This document shows, piece after piece, positions 2,491-62,975 of a DNA stretch of 64,000 nucleotides. Under the pieces are notes generated by a model that saw only the letters and a program-made list of their open reading frames with translations, ran no database searches and was not told the DNA's origin. Every line of letters begins with the position of its first letter. Position 1 is the stretch's first letter. The position numbers and the translations under genes were made by a program. This stretch comes from a virus, in IMG/VR virus record IMGVR_UViG_3300032286_001304, positions 1 to 64,000 of that record. The stretch is one strand, 5' to 3'.

Positions 2491-2970
2491 TTAATACATT
2501 GGCTGATTTCTAAATGCTTTTAGGAATCCATCTCTTTCATCATCTATTATTATCAGATAATTAAATATTAAAGATTTACTAAAAGTCTTTTCGTAAGATT
2601 CTCCAGACATCTCCCTATCTTCTGATGGGTCGTATATTTTACCATCGCAAATTAATACTGCATGGTCTCTCCCTTTCTTTGAGTATTTATTTTTATAATT
2701 TGCGGAGCTTATCACAGGAAACTTTAAAGATAAAGTAATTAGATTAGAAAATATGTTCCAATAATCTTCGTTTATGATTACAGCATTGAAAATTACATTA
2801 TTTCTTTTTAAGAATTTCTCAATAGAACACATTTCTGTTCCAAGTCTTGTTGTTTTTAATTGTTTTCTAGCAATCCTTTCTTCTATTCCAAATAACATAG
2901 ATACAGCAGATGCCACGCAAGAATATGGTTTTTCTTGGTGACGATGTGAAATCTTTTTAATAGGTTTCAT
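2491..2970 (-). CDS. Peptidase C39-like (papain-fold) protein
   Basis: QEKPYSCVASAVSM (Gln/Cys) ... HAVLIC ... IYDPS (His/Asp). Confidence 0.7.
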   Translation of the reverse strand: MKPIKKISHRHQEKPYSCVASAVSMLFGIEERIARKQLKTTRLGTEMCSIEKFLKRNNVIFNAVIINEDYWNIFSNLITLSLKFPVISSANYKNKYSKKGRDHAVLICDGKIYDPSEDREMSGESYEKTFSKSLIFNYLIIIDDERDGFLKAFRNQPMY

Positions 2971-3032
2971 TGATAATTTTCGGGTTTTACATAAAAGTTT
3001 GTTTTAAATTATTTTATTATTTTATAAATAAA

Positions 3033-3095
3033 TGGTTGGACGGGCCAGATTTTGAACTGAGCTATCTGCTTATATTTGATTTAAGCTTTCATCCA
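3033..3095 (-). pseudogene. Degenerate 63 nt tRNA-like element ending in ACCA
   Basis: Imperfect acceptor stem TGGATGA/CCGTCCA, T-arm-like CAG-TTCAAAAT-CTG, one internal hairpin GCTTA/TAAGC. Confidence 0.5.
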
Positions 3096-3152
3096 AAAAT
3101 AAAATGGCGCATATTTATAAAGGAGTTGGTTTTTAGTGTTTATCCTTTATAT

Positions 3153-3647
3153 ATGAAAAAAAGTATTTTAAATCAAATTCCTAATGAAAAACTTCAAACT
3201 CTATTTGATAATAATAATTCTATAAGTTCTATTTTAGGAGAGCTTAATCTAAGCAAATCATGTCGTCATTCAAGAAAAATTCTTAAAAAAAGAATGGTAG
3301 ATTTAGATTTAACAAGATTTAATGAATTAAGAGCTAAAAAATCTCCATTTAAAAGTTTTTATAAAAAATATAAAGACGAAGATATGTTTAAGTTAAATTC
3401 GGATGTTGACGTAAAAACGATAAAAAGAAGGTTTTGCGAAAAAAATCTGCCATTAAAATGCGAATGTTGTAAGATTGAAAATAAATGGAATAATAAACCG
3501 CTAACTTTACAATTTGATCATAAAAATGGAAATAATAAAGATAATAGATTAGAAAATTTACGATGGCTTTGCCCCAATTGTCATAGCCAAACAGAAACTT
3601 ATACTGGGAAGAATAACAAAAAAATGGTGTCTCCGGTTGGACTCTAA
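3153..3647 (+). CDS. HNH homing endonuclease, antisense to the tRNA cluster
   Basis: CECC...LTLQFDHKNGNNKDNRLENLRWLCPNCHSQT; likely start MKKSILNQ. Confidence 0.9.
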   Translation: MKKSILNQIPNEKLQTLFDNNNSISSILGELNLSKSCRHSRKILKKRMVDLDLTRFNELRAKKSPFKSFYKKYKDEDMFKLNSDVDVKTIKRRFCEKNLPLKCECCKIENKWNNKPLTLQFDHKNGNNKDNRLENLRWLCPNCHSQTETYTGKNNKKMVSPVGL

Positions 3648-3701
3648 CCAACGACCATCCGTTTAGAAGACGGATACTCTATACAACTGAGCTACGGAGA
3701 C
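3625..3701 (-). tRNA. tRNA-Arg(UCU) with non-canonical T-loop
   Basis: Cloverleaf GTCTCCG...CGGAGAC-ACCA; anticodon arm TCCGT-CTTCTAA-ACGGA; T-loop TTAGAGT. Confidence 0.93.
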
Positions 3702-3727
3702 AAAATAAAAATAACAAAAACAAAAAT

Positions 3728-3815
3728 TGGTCGCGCTAAACGGAATCGAACCGTTATGCCTATTACGGGCGAAAGATTTTGAGTCTTTTGTGTCTGCCAA
3801 TTCCACCATAACGCG
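3728..3815 (-). tRNA. tRNA-Leu(CAA)
   Basis: Anticodon arm AAAGA-CTCAAAA-TCTTT, long variable arm, GGTTCGATTCC, encoded CCA. Confidence 0.95.
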
Positions 3816-3832
3816 ATAAAATAATTTAGTAA

Positions 3833-3893
3833 TTCAAAGAACCTTTTATTCTTAACCTTCTACTATCCTGCCACAAACCATACTTTCAGTCAA
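3833..3893 (-). promoter_or_regulatory. Sigma70-like promoter plus boxA-like motif upstream of tRNA-Leu/Arg
   Basis: TTGACT-17-CAGGAT, then GTTCTTTGAA at 3833-3842. Confidence 0.6.
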
Positions 3894-3956
3894 TACTTTT
3901 CTATCGTTTTTTTAAAAAAATTTCATATTTTTTATTATGACAAAAATAAAATAATA

Positions 3957-4028
3957 TCCCCTTGCATCAGGTTAATCATCAATTTAAAAAAACCACTAAA
4001 TAAATCAATGTCCTCATCGACAAGGGGA
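3957..4028 (-). ncRNA. Putative long-hairpin ncRNA, unknown family
   Basis: TCCCCTTG/CAAGGGGA closing stem; inner 10 bp stem CATTGATTTA/TAAATTGATG needs G-U pairs that form on the minus strand. Confidence 0.55.
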
Positions 4029-4054
4029 AAAATGTTAAAATAACAAAAATAATA

Positions 4055-4174
4055 CCTCGTAAATAAGCGTTTCTAAAATGTCTCCAGCGAAGCTAGATCC
4101 TTGCATTTTGAGATTTTATCTCATTTTAGAAACCAATGAAATCATCTAGTTGTGAGCATTGCTTATTTACGAGG
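4055..4174 (-). ncRNA. Putative multi-stem ncRNA, unknown family
   Basis: Perfect 14 bp (CCTCGTAAATAAGC) and 12 bp (GTTTCTAAAATG) nested stems plus internal hairpins. Confidence 0.65.
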
Positions 4175-4206
4175 ATTTATCAGGACATGACCCCCGATAA
4201 AAGTAT

Positions 4207-4268
4207 TTGAAAGAACAAAAATTTTACTTAACTTCTAATACCATAGTTTATTCCGTATTGTAATTCAA
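4207..4268 (-). promoter_or_regulatory. Sigma70-like promoter plus boxA-like motif
   Basis: TTGAAT-17-TATGGT, then GTTCTTTCAA at 4207-4216. Confidence 0.55.
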
Positions 4269-4287
4269 GTGTTTTTTTAAAAAAAAT

Positions 4288-4404
4288 TCGACTCCCTAAC
4301 AGTCGATCTTAATGGGTATTTTAATAAAACATAGTTAAACTTTTCAGCAAAACATAGTTTTATTAATCAAGGTTTCTGGTTTGGAATCGCCTACTATAAA
4401 CCTT
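4288..4404. ncRNA. Three consecutive hairpins 3' of tRNA(CAU), possible ncRNA
   Basis: TCGACT/AGTCGA, TTAATAAAAC/GTTTTATTAA, AAGGTTT/AAACCTT. Confidence 0.4.
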
Positions 4405-4416
4405 TTTTCGGAAAAA

Positions 4417-4492
4417 TGGTGGGCGATGAGGGATTCGAACCCCCACTCAAAGCATTATGAGTGCTCTGCTTTAACCATTAAGCTAACCGCCC
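4417..4492 (-). tRNA. tRNA with CAU anticodon, probably Ile2 (lysidine-modified); elongator Met not excluded
   Basis: GGGCGGT acceptor with paired G1-C72, AGCA-CTCATAA-TGCT, GGTTCGAATCC, CCA; lacks the initiator GGG/CCC anticodon stem. Confidence 0.9.
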
Positions 4493-4500
4493 ATAAAGTA

Positions 4501-4546
4501 TTTAAAGAATAAGAAAATGTTTAGACGAGTCTCACTCACTCGTCAA
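4501..4546 (-). promoter_or_regulatory. Sigma70-like promoter with dyad spacer plus boxA-like motif upstream of tRNA(CAU)
   Basis: TTGACG-17-TAAACA containing GACGAGT-N7-ACTCGTC; ATTCTTTAAA at 4501-4510. Confidence 0.55.
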
Positions 4547-4653
4547 GAGGATATTTTGTTGTCCCACAATTTTTTAAGGGAATTTTTCACTTGTTATCAG
4601 ACAAATATTAAAACCTAAAATTATAACCGCCAATTTTCTAATTAATTGGTAAA

Positions 4654-4728
4654 TGGTGCGAGCGGAGGGAATCGAACCCTCATCTCAGCTTTGGAAGAGC
4701 CGCATAATAGCCTTTATACTACGCTCGC
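4654..4728 (-). tRNA. tRNA-Gly(UCC)
   Basis: GCGAGCG acceptor, GGCT-CTTCCAA-AGCT, GGTTCGATTCC, CCA. Confidence 0.95.
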
Positions 4729-4742
4729 ATAAAATTGTGTTC

Positions 4743-4880
4743 AATCTCTAACTGATTAATGATATTCGGCGAATTCATCGAAAAAGTCAAGAACACCTTT
4801 GAATTTTTCTCTCTCCGTCAAGTCGGGTGGTGAATTCGTTATCCTGTGAAATAAAGATAATCAATCTTCATTTCGAGATT
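4743..4880. ncRNA. Long interrupted inverted repeat, either ncRNA or promoter/operator region
   Basis: Nested AATCTC/GAGATT, TGATTA/TAATCA, GGCGAATTCATCG/TGGTGAATTCGTT; also contains minus-strand TTGACT-17-GAATAT. Confidence 0.35.
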
Positions 4881-4908
4881 AAAATTGATTTAAAGAACAA
4901 AATTGAAA

Positions 4909-5020
4909 TGCTAGTTTTTTGAGATTCGCGGAAACTAGCAAAACCAACTATCTCGTTTTTATAGTCCTGTTCAGAGCGGACTGTCAATCAATAATTACGT
5001 TTTAACGGCATAATCTTGAG
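4909..5020. ncRNA. Putative pseudoknotted ncRNA
   Basis: Interleaved stems TGCTAGTTT/AAACTAGCA and GAGAT/ATCTC plus two more hairpins. Confidence 0.5.
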
Positions 5021-5071
5021 TGTTTTCATTTGGATTGAAAAAAATATAAAAAGAACAAAAATGACCTACTT

Positions 5072-5126
5072 TCTCTTATTGGAATCGAACCAATTATATT
5101 TAGTGGCAACCATATCACCCAAGAGA
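5072..5126 (-). ncRNA. tRNA-like mini element with D-like and T arms but no anticodon arm
   Basis: TCTCTT/AAGAGA stem, GG-containing D-like hairpin, perfect T-arm ATTGG-TTCGATT-CCAAT. Confidence 0.6.
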
Positions 5127-5139
5127 TTTCGGTTTTTTA

Positions 5140-5239
5140 TCTCATAATCCGGCTCGTTAATTCCGGCTTTCTGTGAGTTATGCTTGACAGGAAAAACCGT
5201 GCATAATCCTTATATGATTACTACATATTTATTATGAGA
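5140..5239 (-). ncRNA. Four-way-junction (cloverleaf-like) RNA that is not a canonical tRNA
   Basis: Closing stem TCTCATAAT/ATTATGAGA with arms ATATG/CATAT, TTATGC/GCATAA, CCGG/CCGG. Confidence 0.55.
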
Positions 5240-5248
5240 CAAATTATT

Positions 5249-5341
5249 AAAAAAGAACAAAAATTAATATCCCCAGTTTTTAAATAGGGGAGGAAGTGTT
5301 TGATTCACGCCCAATCTACATGGGACTATCATAATTGTCAA
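5249..5341 (-). promoter_or_regulatory. Sigma70-like promoter, boxB-like hairpin and boxA-like motif
   Basis: TTGACA-17-TAGATT; TCCCC/GGGGA hairpin 5270-5291; GTTCTTT at 5252-5258. Confidence 0.6.
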
Positions 5342-5400
5342 CCAATTCTTTTAAAAAAATTGATAAGATATAATGAAACCCTTTACTCCCTGTAAAATAA

Positions 5401-5488
5401 TTTCAAATAAGAAGAACCAACTTACGTGGCACTTGCTTGGCTTTTTACGGCTCTTCACACTCCACTATGCTTTACTTCTTATTTGAAA
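5401..5488 (-). ncRNA. Putative ncRNA closed by a perfect 14 bp stem
   Basis: TTTCAAATAAGAAG/CTTCTTATTTGAAA enclosing a GC-richer 60 nt core; first unit after promoter and boxA. Confidence 0.55.
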
Positions 5489-5501
5489 AATTGAAAAGAT
5501 T

Positions 5502-5562
5502 TTGAAAGAACGACATTACATCTAACTCTTCTTACCTTACCCGATTCCACTCTGGAAATCAA
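5502..5562 (-). promoter_or_regulatory. Sigma70-like promoter plus boxA-like motif at the head of the RNA cluster
   Basis: TTGATT-17-TAAGGT, then GTTCTTTCAA at 5502-5511. Confidence 0.6.
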
Positions 5563-5574
5563 GGATTTTTTTCA

Positions 5575-5593
5575 TTTTTTTTTTTTTTTTTTT
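5575..5593. repeat. T19 homopolymer
   Basis: Directly visible. Confidence 0.9.
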
Positions 5594-5595
5594 GA

Positions 5596-5751
5596 TTAAG
5601 CGCAAAGGTCTCGCATATCAATCTCCGAAGAAAAGTTTTTATTTTCGATTTTATTTTTTTTGCTCTTAATTATCTTAGTTGGAAGAGCTTTTACTTTTGA
5701 CCTTGGTTTGTAGATTTTATTTAATTTTTTCTTTAATTTGTGGGTTTTCAT
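5596..5751 (-). CDS. Small Lys-rich protein (51 aa, below ORF-track cutoff)
   Basis: MKTHKLKKKLNKIYKPRSKVKALPTKIIKSKK... Confidence 0.55.
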   Translation of the reverse strand: MKTHKLKKKLNKIYKPRSKVKALPTKIIKSKKNKIENKNFSSEIDMRDLCA

Positions 5752-10936: not shown

Positions 10937-11425
10937 TTATTCTGTTATTTTTTCTTGTTCTGGAGTGAAAATTGTTCCTAAAGAATATTCTTCTGCATAA
11001 TGTTGATTTACAGAATATGTAAAATCTTGATTTCCACATTTTTGTAGAAATAATTCTACTTTTTCTGCGGCCAACTCATTTAGTTTATCTTCATCCCATT
11101 CAACTTTAACTTCAACAACATCTCCTAGTTCATCTTTAACATGTGAACAAATGTAATTGATATTTTCATTTTTTGCTTTAACTATTTCACCACGAAAACA
11201 ATTAAGCAAAGCAGATTTTAACCTGCTCATTGGCGTTAAAACATAATAATGATTATCGCTTAATTCAAAATAATCTTTAGAAACGCCATATCCTAAGCAA
11301 AAGTTTAGCATTCTATCCAGAGCTTCTTTTGGCCCGCGAAAAAATAAATTATAATAATTATTTCCAGATAAAGTTAAATTAAATTCCAGTGGCTCTTCTA
11401 ACAGGGGTGTGTATGTTTCTGACAT
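10937..11425 (-). CDS. Hypothetical protein
   Basis: 162 aa ORF. Confidence 0.75.
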   Translation of the reverse strand: MSETYTPLLEEPLEFNLTLSGNNYYNLFFRGPKEALDRMLNFCLGYGVSKDYFELSDNHYYVLTPMSRLKSALLNCFRGEIVKAKNENINYICSHVKDELGDVVEVKVEWDEDKLNELAAEKVELFLQKCGNQDFTYSVNQHYAEEYSLGTIFTPEQEKITE

Positions 11426-41425: not shown

Positions 41426-42226
41426 TTAATAATTTGTAATTAAAATTTCTTTATAATCTTTATTTTTCTTTCTGGCTACCTTTTCATAGTCAAATTCTAA
41501 ATAATGGACTTTGTATTTAGATTCGATTAAAGACTCTAGTAATAGAGATTTCTCATCGCATAGGACGCCAGATACGGCGAAGGTTGCCCCAGCCTTATCT
41601 GCTTTATTTAGGTAGTTAGATAGATTGATTTCTTTTTCTATACTCCAGTAAGCATTATATCCTGCCTCTGTTTGATAGTAAGGAGGGTCACAGTAAATAA
41701 AGGTCTTTGAAAGGTCAAATGGATGAACGCTCGAAAAATCTAAACTTGTATAATATAACTTATTTTTAAACTTCTCAATATGTTCAACCCATTTGTTTAT
41801 TTTTAATTCTGTATTTTTATTAAAAGTTCTTTTTCCAAAAGTTTGATTGAAATAGAAAGACTTATTAAAACGCATCATGTTGTTTGTGCAACTCAACATT
41901 AACGCGAATAACTTTTCTGGAGATTTTTCTGAATTGTAACTATCTCTTAGTGTATGATAAAGATTTTGGTCATCTTTAGCTGGACATAGCAGCTTTACTC
42001 TTTCTACAAAAGATTTATCATTAACTAATGAATAATGAATTTCTACTAAATTCTTAATTATGTCATTAGCCCAGATTTTTTCATATTTATCTAAAATATT
42101 TGTGTAAACAGAACCTCCACCGCAAAATAAATCCAAAAAATATGGTTTTGAATAATCAAATTTAGGTAGAATCTGTTCTAAAAGTTTATATTTAGAACCA
42201 GTATAATTAAAAGGTGTTTCTATCAT
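41426..42226 (-). CDS. dam: Dam-like DNA adenine methyltransferase
   Basis: YTGSK, DLFCGGGSV, DPPY, EILITNY. Confidence 0.93.
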   Translation of the reverse strand: MIETPFNYTGSKYKLLEQILPKFDYSKPYFLDLFCGGGSVYTNILDKYEKIWANDIIKNLVEIHYSLVNDKSFVERVKLLCPAKDDQNLYHTLRDSYNSEKSPEKLFALMLSCTNNMMRFNKSFYFNQTFGKRTFNKNTELKINKWVEHIEKFKNKLYYTSLDFSSVHPFDLSKTFIYCDPPYYQTEAGYNAYWSIEKEINLSNYLNKADKAGATFAVSGVLCDEKSLLLESLIESKYKVHYLEFDYEKVARKKNKDYKEILITNY

Positions 42227-42803: not shown

Positions 42804-42960
42804 GTTTTATGATTATCTTATCAGTATCTTTTATTGCATTACCAGCTAATGCTCTAATGACAGACTCGGCTCCTTTGAATGCATATTCCCTTGTCAATTC
42901 GGGAACAGTATAAATAAATGTTTTAGTCCCGTTCCTATGTCTAATGACTTTAAGTGGCAT
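42778..42960 (-). CDS. Hypothetical protein
   Basis: 60 aa ORF. Confidence 0.5.
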   Translation of the reverse strand: MPLKVIRHRNGTKTFIYTVPELTREYAFKGAESVIRALAGNAIKDTDKIIIKHAKTRKTN

Positions 42961-45562
42961 TTTCTAGCTCCTTTCTGACCACACTTGCTTTCAATACGGT
43001 CGGAACCTCTTGTTCGACAATTTCTTTAACGAAATATATCTCATCTGTTTCACTAGTTACTTTTTTGGATAGGTGTATCACGGCGATTGAGTCTTCCTTC
43101 AAATTAACGAGTTCGTTCAGCAAGTCAAGCTGGAATAGCATCACAACCAAAGAATCTGTGTCATCTTTTATTGTGTATCTGACATAATCTTTTTTATTCT
43201 TAGAAATTCTTTTTTCTATTTCTTTTATTTGACAAATACATTTATAATCTCCTTGTGGCAGAGCTTTTAATGTTTTTAAATCATGCAATCCGATTATATG
43301 TTTACTATAAATAGATTTTAGCGAACCAGAATAAGAAAATCCAACATATTCATTTTCAGCAATCCATTTTGTAAGTTCTTCAAATCTTGAATTTCTAATA
43401 TATTTTTGCCAAAATGGAATATAATTCTTTTTTATTGTATCTCTTCTTGATTCTTTTATAAAAGGTTTTCCTTTTAAGTCTTTTAAATCTTCAACACAAG
43501 CCTTTATACAAGCCTCTAGGTTATAATTATATTTTTCACCAATGCTATGAATGATTGGCTTTTCCTTTGGAGTTAAAAGTTTATATAATTCAAGTTGAGC
43601 AATTAATTTATTTCTAGTGCTATCTTTGTTATATTCATCAAAGCAACCAGACATAATTAGGGAAGACGCCAAATTAATTGGAATTCCTGCTTCTGTTATT
43701 CCAGAAAATAAAGAGAATTTATTTTCAACAGCAATTTTAAATTCATGGATTTTATCAATTGCTTTTCCAGCAACACCCTTTACATTTGAAAGACCAATTC
43801 TGATTGCCCCATTTTCAATCACATGGTCATCTTTTGAGCAAGAAAGAGATGGAGGTAGTAATTTTATTCCTCTATCATCCATTTCCTTTTTTATTCTTGA
43901 TACATTTATAATTCTATCTTTTGGAGAATCATAACGAGTCATCTTCAAGCACGCCCAATAAAACTCGACTGGATATTTTATCTTTAACCATATCGTTTGC
44001 GCTGTAATCATCCCATACGAGATGGCGTGACATTTCGCAAATTGATACCCACCAGACTCTTCCGCTATTTTTAGAAGAAGATCTACAACAGTTTTTTCTA
44101 TACCATTCTTTTCGCAAATTTCTTCAATTTCTTTTTTTACTTTTGGAATCTCATCAATTTTCTTTTTACCAAGAGTTCTTCTAGCCATTTCAGCTTTATT
44201 TGGGTCCATTCCTACATTAATCAACATCTTTAGATATTGTTCTTGAAACAAACAAATTCCGCCAGTTGGTTTAAGAACATCATCAATTACAGGATGAATA
44301 GTTTCATAAACTGAATTATGAACATAATTTAAATATTTCTTTAATCCGCTTATAGCACCGGGACGACTAATAGCAAGAGCATCTGCAATTTGAATAAAAT
44401 TCTTTGGTTTTATTTGAATTGCAATTCTTCCTTGAGCCTCAGACTCAAATTGGAATATTCCATACATATCTTTGGCATCTTGAAGCCATTGATAAATAAT
44501 ATTATCTTCGCAATTTATATCTTCGACCTTGATTCCAGCCGCTTTACAACAATCATAAACGACAGATGCGGTTTTTAGTCCTAGTTCGTCAAATTTAAGA
44601 GTAAGCTCTTGTGCGGTATACATATCACAAGAATTTGAAATGGCATATTCCCCTGTTTCTTCACCTTTTGTAAGCTGAAGGGGCATTAAATTAGCTATTT
44701 CATCATGTGAAATCAAAACAGCGGAAGCATGGCATCCGACTGATTTTTTAAGACCTCTTAACTTTAATGACATCCTGATTACTTCAGAATGATTCTTAGC
44801 CCATTGTTTTAACTTTACATTTTCTTTATTTTTGTCATTTGAAAGGGCATCACCTAAGTCTTCGACTATGCCGAATTGCTTATCGACGAGGTCGCTTACA
44901 TCATTTGCTTCGCTTTCAGAAGATTCCTCGTAACATTTTAAGACTTCTTTTAATAGAATCTTTGTAGTTAGGGAGCCAGTAGTTAGAAGTTTAGCCGTTC
45001 TATTTGGATATTTTTGATTTAGATATTCAATAACCTCACTTCTTCTGTAAAAACATAAATCTTGGTCAATATCGGGAGCAAGAGAACCGTCGATGTATTT
45101 TATTCCATCAATAAAACTTGTTTTTGCGCGGGCTGGATTTAGAAATCGGGTAAAGAAAAGTTCATTCTTAATTGAGTCAATCTTAGTAATTCCTACTAAA
45201 TAACAAACAATACTTGAAGCTACTGAACCACGACCTGGACCAGTTGGAATTTCATTTCTACGGCAAAAGTCACAAATATCCCAAACCATCAAGATGTAAT
45301 CAATAAATCCAAGAGTCTCAATAACATTTAACTCTTCTTTTATTTGATTGGCATACTTTTGATTTAGCGATTTATCTATTTTGCCAACTATTTTATCACG
45401 AAATCCCTTTCTGCATAGTTCGGTTAAAAACTCTTTATTAGAAACTGATTCTGGCAGACCAACATATTCGTATTGAATCTTTGAAGGTTTGAATTCTGGT
45501 AAACGAACTCCGTTAAAAAGAACAGGAATTTCGTATGAAGTAAATTTTTTGGAAAAAGACAT
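42950..45562 (-). CDS. dnaE: DNA polymerase III alpha-like catalytic subunit lacking the PHP domain
   Basis: GPGRGS, PDIDQD, HASAV, KFDELGL, GIFQFES, FAKCHA.SY, GLSNVKGV, C-terminal OB fold. Confidence 0.95.
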   Translation of the reverse strand: MSFSKKFTSYEIPVLFNGVRLPEFKPSKIQYEYVGLPESVSNKEFLTELCRKGFRDKIVGKIDKSLNQKYANQIKEELNVIETLGFIDYILMVWDICDFCRRNEIPTGPGRGSVASSIVCYLVGITKIDSIKNELFFTRFLNPARAKTSFIDGIKYIDGSLAPDIDQDLCFYRRSEVIEYLNQKYPNRTAKLLTTGSLTTKILLKEVLKCYEESSESEANDVSDLVDKQFGIVEDLGDALSNDKNKENVKLKQWAKNHSEVIRMSLKLRGLKKSVGCHASAVLISHDEIANLMPLQLTKGEETGEYAISNSCDMYTAQELTLKFDELGLKTASVVYDCCKAAGIKVEDINCEDNIIYQWLQDAKDMYGIFQFESEAQGRIAIQIKPKNFIQIADALAISRPGAISGLKKYLNYVHNSVYETIHPVIDDVLKPTGGICLFQEQYLKMLINVGMDPNKAEMARRTLGKKKIDEIPKVKKEIEEICEKNGIEKTVVDLLLKIAEESGGYQFAKCHAISYGMITAQTIWLKIKYPVEFYWACLKMTRYDSPKDRIINVSRIKKEMDDRGIKLLPPSLSCSKDDHVIENGAIRIGLSNVKGVAGKAIDKIHEFKIAVENKFSLFSGITEAGIPINLASSLIMSGCFDEYNKDSTRNKLIAQLELYKLLTPKEKPIIHSIGEKYNYNLEACIKACVEDLKDLKGKPFIKESRRDTIKKNYIPFWQKYIRNSRFEELTKWIAENEYVGFSYSGSLKSIYSKHIIGLHDLKTLKALPQGDYKCICQIKEIEKRISKNKKDYVRYTIKDDTDSLVVMLFQLDLLNELVNLKEDSIAVIHLSKKVTSETDEIYFVKEIVEQEVPTVLKASVVRKELENAT

Positions 45563-61635: not shown

Positions 61636-62901
61636 TTAATTTTTAAATTCTTTCTTTTTTAATGTCCACCCATTATACTCTTTTATCTGGTCCCTTATCA
61701 AGAGAAAAAGTTTTTTCTTCGGAATTAGCCCAATCATAAATTTCCATAGCTCGCTGGGGCTTTCGGCAGAAATCTCTTCGTTAGTATTTATATTTAAAAG
61801 AGATATATAACTATATTGTTTTCTTGGATGACTTTTTAAAACGCTTATTAAATCAAATCTTTTATGATTTTTTAGTCGCCCATTAACGATTCTTCTAATT
61901 GATGGATCGCCCATCTCAAGTATAAATTGAGATAAATTTGTTATAGTTATTTCTATTTTATTTTTCTTGTCATATAAAACATATACTCCACATGGTTTTG
62001 TTTTATTCTTTAAACAAACAATATCCTCGTCCGTGATACTCGCGAGTCTCCACCCTTTTCGCTCTACAGCCTTACCCCGTATCAAAAAAGTTACATCTTC
62101 GCGCAATAATGGAGGATGAAGGCGAGCAAACTCCGTTGAACTTCCTCCATATTTGTAAATTTTGCCATCTGGTCCCTTTAGCTCCATATCTTTTAGCTCT
62201 TGGCGCTTAAACCATTTTGAAATATCCATACCTTCTTTGATATAATCACCACATGGAGTATTTGTCTTAAATCCATTAATCATTGCAGATAAATAATCTG
62301 GATTTAATTTTTTTTCTAAGGCGAATTCAGATATGTTTTTAAAATAAATAACTTCTTTTGTTTTATAATTAATTAATTTATATTCTTTGTTTGGATTTTT
62401 AATTAATTCTAACGGAGTTCCCTTTAGCGCGAAACCCTGAGATGAAATATTTTGTTTAGAAATAACAACTTTTAGACTTGGGTAAGACAACCCTCTTTCT
62501 TTGCAAAAATCTTTTAGATGGAAAATAATATATTCTTTTCCTTTGTAATCAACAAGATGATGCTCTTGGGATACTGACTCGGATAATTTTCTTTTTGAAA
62601 TCTCCGAAAACTCAGGAGAATCTCCACCAGTTGTAAAATTATAGCCATTGGGAACAAAAGTGTTATGTTTTGCTATATGAAATTTTTCTAATCTTTTCAG
62701 TTCTTCTTTTGATTGTACATTTGACTCAAGCAGTTCAACTTTAAAGTTTTTAGGACCGTATAAATTAACGGCATTTGACAGATATTGATTATGATGCTTT
62801 CTATACCAATTTCCATGATACCTTTCTCTTATATTTTTCTTTATACTCAAACCGATATAAGAATGTCCATTTATTTTGTTGGTAATTTTATAGATAATCA
62901 T
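61636..62901 (-). CDS. GIY-YIG homing endonuclease with repeated C-terminal DNA-binding modules
   Basis: MIIYKITNKINGHSYIG...NGYNFTTGG; likely start 62901. Confidence 0.9.
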   Translation of the reverse strand: MIIYKITNKINGHSYIGLSIKKNIRERYHGNWYRKHHNQYLSNAVNLYGPKNFKVELLESNVQSKEELKRLEKFHIAKHNTFVPNGYNFTTGGDSPEFSEISKRKLSESVSQEHHLVDYKGKEYIIFHLKDFCKERGLSYPSLKVVISKQNISSQGFALKGTPLELIKNPNKEYKLINYKTKEVIYFKNISEFALEKKLNPDYLSAMINGFKTNTPCGDYIKEGMDISKWFKRQELKDMELKGPDGKIYKYGGSSTEFARLHPPLLREDVTFLIRGKAVERKGWRLASITDEDIVCLKNKTKPCGVYVLYDKKNKIEITITNLSQFILEMGDPSIRRIVNGRLKNHKRFDLISVLKSHPRKQYSYISLLNINTNEEISAESPSELWKFMIGLIPKKKLFLLIRDQIKEYNGWTLKKKEFKN

Positions 62902-62975
62902 TGTTCGCCCTTTATCAAAATTACACCTGAGACGAACACTTTTATACACAAAAAGAATCCATATATACACTTAAA

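Follow-up and report, generated by a model that had tools for sequence, protein, structure and literature searches.

The first 64 kb of the 97,940-bp IMG/VR virus record IMGVR_UViG_3300032286_001304 (completeness estimate 63%), hereafter the window, contain an untranslated cluster of co-oriented RNA genes on the minus strand at 3625-5562. Four transfer RNA (tRNA) genes with encoded CCA ends were called there by both ARAGORN and Rfam. A preliminary description of this DNA had already seen tRNA genes in the stretch; tRNA-Met and tRNA-Gly do lie inside it, while tRNA-Leu and tRNA-Arg lie just outside, and all four are on the minus strand. The roughly 1.7 kb without an open reading frame (ORF) of at least 60 amino acids was likewise borne out, as the longest frames between 3820 and 5595 reach only 39-48 amino acids. 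Reading TGA as tryptophan or TAG as glutamine gave only frames requiring three to four read-throughs, none of them convincing. No further tRNA and no transfer-messenger RNA (tmRNA) was found in the window by the standard, relaxed, mitochondrial-type or tmRNA modes of ARAGORN, and no CCA-adding enzyme was found in the 98-kb record.

The tRNA genes and the non-tRNA units between them are listed below in the direction of transcription. The z-scores were calculated on the minus strand, and the fractions, where given, are the shuffles out of 200 that folded as well as the unit.

5401-5488, minus strand: unit A, 88 nucleotides (nt), perfect 14-bp closing stem (5401-5414 with 5475-5488, 14/14 nt); z -4.9, 0/200, strong
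5266-5400, minus strand: segment B, conserved 135 nt, a candidate RNA unit or promoter with leader
5271-5290, minus strand: CCCC/GGGG hairpin inside segment B
5140-5239, minus strand: unit C, 100 nt, 9-bp closing stem; z -2.4, 2/200, marginal
5072-5126, minus strand: unit D, read from its sequence as a tRNA top-half mimic; z -0.7, 40/200, not significant
4909-5020, minus strand: unit E, weak, local hairpins only, one of them a 9-bp stem at 4909-4940; z -0.8, 43/200, not significant
4737-4884, minus strand: unit F, closed 148-nt fold; z -2.3, marginal
4654-4728, minus strand: tRNA-Gly (UCC)
4518-4653, minus strand: segment G, spacer; two local hairpins, overall fold not significant; z -0.75
4417-4492, minus strand: tRNA-Met (CAU)
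4288-4404, minus strand: unit H, ending in a terminator-like hairpin and T8 (4288-4306); z -2.2, 5/200, marginal
4176-4201, minus strand: 10-bp hairpin immediately after the boxA-like box 6 (listed further below); z -4.0
4055-4174, minus strand: unit I, rod of 120 nt closed by a 14-bp stem, with a second helix of 12 bp and side hairpins; z -7.2, 0/200, strong
3957-4028, minus strand: unit J, 72 nt, outer helix and inner 10-bp hairpin; z -3.5, 0/200, strong
3728-3815, minus strand: tRNA-Leu (CAA)
3625-3701, minus strand: tRNA-Arg (UCU)

Seven self-complementary units had been proposed in the preliminary description (A, C, D, E, H, I and J). Closing stems were confirmed (A, C and I), but the fold as a whole is strong in only three of them, marginal in two and not significant in the other two. 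Unit F, the 5266-5400 segment and the hairpin at 4176-4201 were absent from that earlier list. The arms of unit C extend to an inverted repeat of 13 nt (5136-5148 with 5231-5243, 92%) and those of unit I to one of 20 nt (4049-4068 with 4161-4180, 90%). The motif AAATAAG is common to the two longest closing stems, as had been noticed for the two 14-bp stems (AAATAAG/CTTATTT). Unit D has an acceptor-like stem of 6-7 bp stacked on a canonical T-arm (TTCGATT loop), plus a short D-like hairpin; it has neither anticodon arm nor CCA, and it was not called as a tRNA by ARAGORN or Rfam.

The minus strand folds better than the plus strand for six of the seven units. When the whole second operon (322 nt; the predicted operons are given below) was folded at once, it gave a string of independent domains (z -5.3), and in the operon-level folds units I, J and A each retained a separate domain of their own. 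That at least some of the non-tRNA units behave as RNA genes is supported by this strand preference, together with one hairpin that is kept in a relative (see below).

Because the unit boundaries were picked by eye, two genome-wide controls were run. In unregistered 100-nt segments the cluster had a mean z of -1.12 against -0.34 (Mann-Whitney p 0.0065), a shift that is only modest. Perfect inverted repeats of at least 12 nt with arms 20-130 nt apart were then counted in 1.8-kb tiles over the 98-kb genome. The mean was 0.15 per tile, the cluster has three, and the only tiles reaching two overlap the cluster, which is thus the top outlier of the genome for stem-closing inverted repeats. The two strongest-folding 100-nt segments genome-wide, 41701-41800 (z -8.4) and 11001-11100 (z -5.9), are both on the minus strand and both outside the cluster.

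A U-rich motif lies 7-20 nt upstream of every tRNA and unit on the minus strand, with the core TTTGTTCTTT or a one-mismatch variant, and an AU-rich trailer follows every tRNA and unit. The T-rich minus-strand spacers reported earlier are real and strand-specific. Four exact copies of the 9-mer TTGTTCTTT lie within about 1 kb of the cluster, all of them on the transcribed strand; the other 196 kb (both strands) have three. Similarly, four of the five copies of G[CT]TCTTT[ACG]AA in the genome are within the cluster, and three of these four stand about 25 nt behind a common module, promoter-like and followed by a leader: TTGAnT, 17 nt, a TAnGGT- or CAGGAT-like hexamer, then AGAAG..TTA(A)G. The individual elements are as follows, with their state in a metagenomic relative (L058) where relevant.

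5534-5562, minus strand: promoter-like P1, TTGATT, 17 nt, TAAGGT; long A-tract upstream; kept in L058
5502-5511, minus strand: boxA-like box 1, GTTCTTTCAA; about 25 nt past P1, after the leader AGAAG..TTAG
5313-5341, minus strand: sigma-70-like promoter in segment B, TTGACA, 17 nt, TAGATT; best of the stretch
5252-5261, minus strand: spacer motif copy 2, TTTGTTCTTT; breakpoint where L058 diverges
5050-5059, minus strand: spacer motif copy 3, TTTGTTCTTT
4889-4898, minus strand: boxA-like box 4, GTTCTTTAAA; inside the first predicted operon
4501-4512, minus strand: spacer motif copy 5, TTATTCTTTAAA; 11 nt ahead of tRNA-Met
4288-4306, minus strand: terminator-like hairpin and T8, closing the first block of units
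4240-4268, minus strand: promoter-like P2, TTGAAT, 17 nt, TATGGT; behind a T8A7 tract
4207-4216, minus strand: boxA-like box 6, GTTCTTTCAA; after the leader AGAAGTTAAG
4038-4047, minus strand: spacer motif copy 7, TTTGTTATTT
3915-3944, minus strand: terminator-like hairpin and T-run, weak here (-2 kcal/mol) and stronger in L058 (-8)
3865-3893, minus strand: promoter-like P3, TTGACT, 17 nt, CAGGAT; kept in L058
3833-3842, minus strand: boxA-like box 8, GTTCTTTGAA; 20 nt ahead of tRNA-Leu; kept in L058
3709-3718, minus strand: spacer motif copy 9, TTTGTTATTT; between tRNA-Leu and tRNA-Arg

Several promoters had been suggested for this region, and the elements above agree with this: three predicted promoter-like modules, P1-P3, and the consensus match in segment B. 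The latter is the only strong consensus promoter of the stretch, and its -35 hexamer is not retained in L058. The case for P1-P3 is made by their mutual similarity, the A/T tracts upstream of them and their conservation in the relative. The simplest reading of promoters and terminators predicts three untranslated operons, from P1 to 4288 (about 1.2 kb), from P2 to about 3915 (about 0.3 kb), and from P3 through tRNA-Leu and tRNA-Arg. Directly upstream of P1 is a run of T19 on the plus strand (A19 as transcribed) at 5578-5596; a mixed A/T stretch takes its place in the relative.

The only independent relative obtained comes from a single metagenome scan, as two loci (L058 and L059) that are nearly one phage and whose rIIB is 79% identical to that of the window. 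Their cluster is shorter. P1, unit A, segment B, unit J, P3, tRNA-Leu and tRNA-Arg are common to both phages; units C, D, E, F, H and I and P2 are missing from the relative. It has in turn a different tRNA-Met, a degenerate copy of tRNA-Gly, a stem-closed unit of its own (L058 13516-13605) and, after tRNA-Arg, a CCA-ending tRNA-like unit. The degenerate tRNA (L058 13419-13486), found in place of the intact tRNA-Gly, retains its 3′ half and has a broken 5′ acceptor strand; it scores 34 bits in Rfam and gives no standard ARAGORN call. The mitochondrial-type mode of ARAGORN called two degenerate tRNA-like units in L058. The breakpoints between the two phages fall at the spacer motif, and the array therefore evolves by cassette exchange. 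The motif itself is kept in L058, where box 8 is retained and three core copies are present.

Between the window and L058, identity reaches 98.9% in unit A and 98.5% in segment B, compared with 74-89% for the ORFs on their left. Unit J lies within a block of 83% identity; its outer helix is invariant, and 9/10 pairs of its inner 10-bp helix are kept through six substitutions. One of these changes is a full swap of U-A to C-G, and three pass through G-U wobbles, which would be mismatches on the plus strand. With two sequences and no formal power, this pattern has the appearance of an RNA under structural selection.

No catalogued RNA family accounts for the units, as had been anticipated from the lack of recognisable hallmarks. 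Rfam, run on the window at the gathering threshold and at E up to 10, returned only tRNAs and no known hallmark family; the sole exception over the units at E up to 10 was a 7-bit fragment of a T-loop. On L058 it also returned tRNAs only. A tRNA identity (RF00005) of the units was rejected, since only the four tRNAs were called even with relaxed ARAGORN or with Rfam at E up to 10. Y RNA was rejected as well, there being no Ro60/TROVE gene in the 98-kb record (which is about 63% complete). Compared within the genome, the units are single-copy and unrelated to one another, which rules out a miniature inverted-repeat element or other dispersed repeat. Their complementarity to the rest of the genome is no better than chance, and a trans-acting antisense role was set aside on this ground.

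Searches for further relatives added little. The RNA stretch matched only tRNAs and an HNH gene by blastn against 50,697 phage records, and megablast gave no close match among cultured phages. Nothing was recovered from IMG/VR by locus searches that used one protein at a time (rIIB or the right-flank gene), and the alignment-based search for relatives found only rIIB at no more than 42% identity and no homologous units. IMG/VR was scanned for exact patterns of units A, B and J, and the GTDB genomes for that of unit A; all matches lay inside coding sequence and were due to chance. When 0.93 Mb of related loci were searched with a covariance model of unit J, no additional copy came up. Closer relatives are known as proteins, with rIIB 74-93% identical (P0001-P0004 and P0006). 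In a distant rIIB-bearing phage (L003, 14084-15620), a 457-nt ORF-free stretch precedes tRNA-Met, which is followed by tRNA-Arg, a 190-aa ORF and tRNA-Leu; this is the same set and layout of tRNAs in unrelated sequence.

Small stable RNAs were first seen in the tRNA clusters of the phages T4 and T5 decades ago. The T4 record (NC_000866) has rnaC (species 1) and rnaD (species 2) annotated as small stable RNAs beside tRNA-Arg and the homing-endonuclease gene segB, and a study from 2022 still assigns no known function to RNAC and RNAD (PMC9697503). Among the tRNAs of T5, eight stable RNAs of unknown function are annotated (RNAI, RNAIII, RNAIV, RNA2H, RNAX and RNA1-3); RNA1, RNA2 and RNA3 are annotated as tRNA-like, and the region holds several promoters and three HNH endonucleases (NC_005859). 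A locus of this kind is thus not undescribed, since annotations of both phages already place stable RNAs without known function among the tRNA genes. The claim that the units are outside known families did hold.

The design of the T4 locus, with structured non-coding stable RNAs at the end of a tRNA operon and a homing endonuclease, is like that of the cluster, and the end of T4 rnaC, like unit D, combines a canonical T-arm with an acceptor-like strand. In T5, small RNAs, some of them tRNA-like, are interleaved with co-oriented tRNAs, internal promoters and HNH endonucleases, as here. The present segments are non-coding and lie within, and co-oriented with, a phage tRNA cluster; compact structure on the transcribed strand is found in units I, A and J, marginally in C, H and F, and not in E, D and G. 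T4 has two such RNAs, whereas the cluster has about ten modules, and the T4 folds have no long closing stems of 9-14 bp like those of the units. In T5, unlike in the cluster, small protein genes also separate the tRNAs. The T5 RNAs have been observed as real molecules, while the present units are predicted from DNA sequence. Moreover, a boxA-like spacer is lacking in T4, and T5 has none repeated on the transcribed strand; the repeated spacer grammar is what is new relative to both phages. The units have no homology to the stable RNAs of T4 or sequence similarity to those of T5 (blastn, the same 50,697 records).

Other known RNAs resemble the cluster in part. GOLLD and ROOL are large structured RNAs of unknown or poorly known role that adjoin phage tRNA genes. 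They measure 600-800 nt, compared with 55-150 nt for the units, and neither was matched in Rfam, provided that the release includes those families. The elbow of acceptor and T-arm seen in unit D also occurs in tRNA mimics such as the tRNA-like domain of tmRNA and the bacterial Y RNA YrlA.

The layout of the cluster, its motif, the statistics of its folds, the turnover of cassettes and one substitution pattern that preserves structure were observed here. Our preferred reading, to which we give a probability of roughly 0.6, is by analogy with T4 and T5: the cluster would be akin to their tRNA-region stable RNAs, with the units released by the tRNA-processing enzymes of the host. The transcription, processing, stability and function that we infer for these RNAs would be as follows. 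P1, P2, P3 and perhaps a fourth promoter in segment B would drive untranslated minus-strand operons made up of the four tRNAs in alternation with about ten RNA modules, which fold on themselves, are unrelated to one another and occur once each. Ahead of each module, 7-20 nt from the point where its pairing begins, is a conserved U-rich spacer with the core UUUGUUCUUU, and behind the module is an AU-rich trailer. The precursor would be cut by the enzymes of host tRNA maturation, with an RNase E-type enzyme acting in the AU-rich trailers and RNase P at the base of the acceptor-like closing stems, and this would leave the modules, like those of T4 and T5, as small stable species next to the tRNAs. 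The released RNAs may mimic or titrate partners of tRNA or of structured RNA, a point that we make with low confidence.

Several observations weigh against this interpretation. P1-P3 match only 7-8 of the 12 consensus positions of E. coli promoters and were not listed by the promoter scan. Units E and D and segment G fold no better than shuffled sequences. The sequence to the right of the cluster (2995-1671 of the window) is also 96.7% identical to L058, so that mosaic recombination could explain the identity of A and B as well as selection does; this identity may come from recent exchange rather than from selection. Covariation across relatives had been proposed as a check on the units. The pairs of unit J hold in L058, but a shuffle control reached the observed value in 246/500 cases, and there is no statistical power for covariation because only one independent relative is available.

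The units could instead be cis-acting parts of a tRNA operon (promoters, UP-like tracts, leaders, terminators, or scaffolds for processing and folding) that are degraded once the tRNAs are released, as spacers of ribosomal RNA (rRNA) operons serve as processing and folding scaffolds. The best promoter match of the stretch within segment B, the terminator-like hairpin at the end of unit H, the T-run/A-run junctions ahead of P2 and P3, and the several segments without a significant fold all agree with this, and the lack of most units in L058 makes them dispensable. A scaffold of 1.4 kb is, however, far beyond the need of four tRNAs, for which L058 makes do with much less; each of units I, A and J forms a compact closed domain (z -3.5 to -7.2) that stays separate in the operon-level folds, and the comparable inserts of T4 and T5 accumulate as stable RNAs. 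We consider this explanation unlikely, if still worth keeping in mind. Somewhat more improbable is that cassette turnover in a fast-evolving tRNA array left the units behind as debris, in the form of decayed tRNA genes and remnants of inserts that have no function now. The degenerate tRNA-Gly copy and the CCA-ending tRNA-like unit of L058 fit such decay, as does unit D, which retains only acceptor and T-arm, and two phages whose rIIB is 79% identical have very different sets of units. Eroded tRNAs would not be expected to resemble the rod-like unit I or to have closing stems of 9-14 bp, and no tRNA remnant appears in Rfam at E up to 10; in addition, the hairpin of unit J is maintained through six substitutions and the units are in register with a conserved spacer.

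An element acting at the level of DNA, either a replication origin or a recombination hotspot with iteron-like repeats, inverted repeats and A/T tracts, might be suspected from the roughly nine motif copies on one strand, the many inverted repeats, the T19 run at 5578-5596 and the cassette breakpoints at the motif. Iterons are normally close and regular, whereas the motif spacing is irregular (158-388 nt). The cumulative GC skew has no turn at the stretch, the folds favour one strand and use G-U pairs, and the stretch sits among tRNA genes, which need transcription; this makes such an element very improbable. We give hardly any credence to the last explanation, namely that the stretch encodes micro-proteins of fewer than 50 amino acids that escaped the ORF thresholds. 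There are many frames of 20-43 amino acids, for example 5264-5341 in the conserved segment B, but no ribosome-binding site can be recognised for any of them, they overlap with tRNAs or closing stems, and alternative genetic codes give no convincing frames. The near total conservation of A and B leaves too few changes for a codon-position pattern.

The spacer core resembles boxA, whose gamma-proteobacterial consensus is GYTCTTTAANA (PMC5725501). Three copies match at 10/11 positions and two at 9/11, with the reservation that this consensus may not be that of the host; the remaining copies retain only the pyrimidine core TTCTTT or TTATTT. As in rRNA operons and lambdoid nut sites, three copies lie shortly past predicted promoter-like elements (about 25 nt), at the head of long untranslated transcription units. 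In nut sites boxA is followed by a hairpin, and one boxA-like copy of the cluster also precedes one. Known boxA systems have one or two copies, while the cluster has up to nine, several of them degenerate after the TTCTTT core. From sequence we tentatively propose, with the odds rather against it, that the spacer core is a boxA-type loading site for Nus factors, which would keep RNA polymerase resistant to Rho over the roughly 1.2 kb of untranslated RNA. The position of copies behind promoter-like modules, at the head of a long untranslated RNA, speaks for it. Against it, a deletion in L058 removes the 3′ half of box 1, and the motif is absent from the tRNA clusters of T4 and T5 and not enriched near the tRNAs of 55 other rIIB-bearing phage loci (1 copy in 50 kb versus 30 in 591 kb). 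On the ground of these T4, T5 and 55-locus comparisons boxA was rejected as a general trait of phage tRNA arrays. A plain alternative is that the spacer is a processing signal, with an RNase E-type site in the AU-rich trailer and a U-rich leader for RNase P. A literature search with boxA sequence strings gave only irrelevant matches, and the 47 matches of a scan with the leader-box pattern were apparently due to chance, mostly within apparent coding sequence.

A decoy role of the units is speculation. In its fullest form, the cluster would encode a fast-evolving battery of decoys that titrate host tRNA-targeting nucleases or RNA-binding defence proteins, including the mimic of the tRNA top half and rod-like duplex RNAs, made through mimicry of rRNA operons and swapped at the spacers. 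The boxA-type site would be supplied anew after each co-transcriptionally cleaved module, letting the polymerase escape Rho. We regard this combined scenario as improbable.

If the stable-RNA interpretation is right, the T4/T5 design recurs in an unrelated, uncultured freshwater phage, which suggests that operons combining tRNAs with structured RNAs form a widespread but neglected group of accessory genes in phages. Promoter, leader, box, folded unit and AU-rich trailer follow one another here in an unusually clear modular grammar, and the locus displays cassette-like gain and loss between close relatives. The repeated boxA-like spacer offers a testable idea on how long untranslated phage operons are transcribed.

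The genome as a whole is that of a large uncultured double-stranded DNA phage from freshwater, with a GC content of about 30% and almost all genes on the minus strand. PHROG scans identified rIIA, rIIB, a UvsX-like recombinase, a DnaB-like helicase, ribonucleotide reductase and homing endonucleases. The 870-aa DNA polymerase (42950-45562, minus strand) is DnaE-like (Pol III alpha type) and not T4 gp43-like by tblastn. The phage therefore shares some T4 modules without being a true T4 relative, and the label T4-like was dropped despite rIIA, rIIB and the UvsX-like gene. An HNH homing-endonuclease gene adjoins the RNA genes:

2970-3647, plus strand: HNH homing-endonuclease gene, convergent with the RNA cluster; an insertion relative to L058

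The CCA-ending tRNA-like unit of the relative, about 80 nt long, is found at the corresponding place (L058 14004-14122). Several selfish endonuclease genes are carried by the genome, among them a 444-aa ORF at 61636-62970 on the minus strand that matches the GIY-YIG and HNH homing-endonuclease families.

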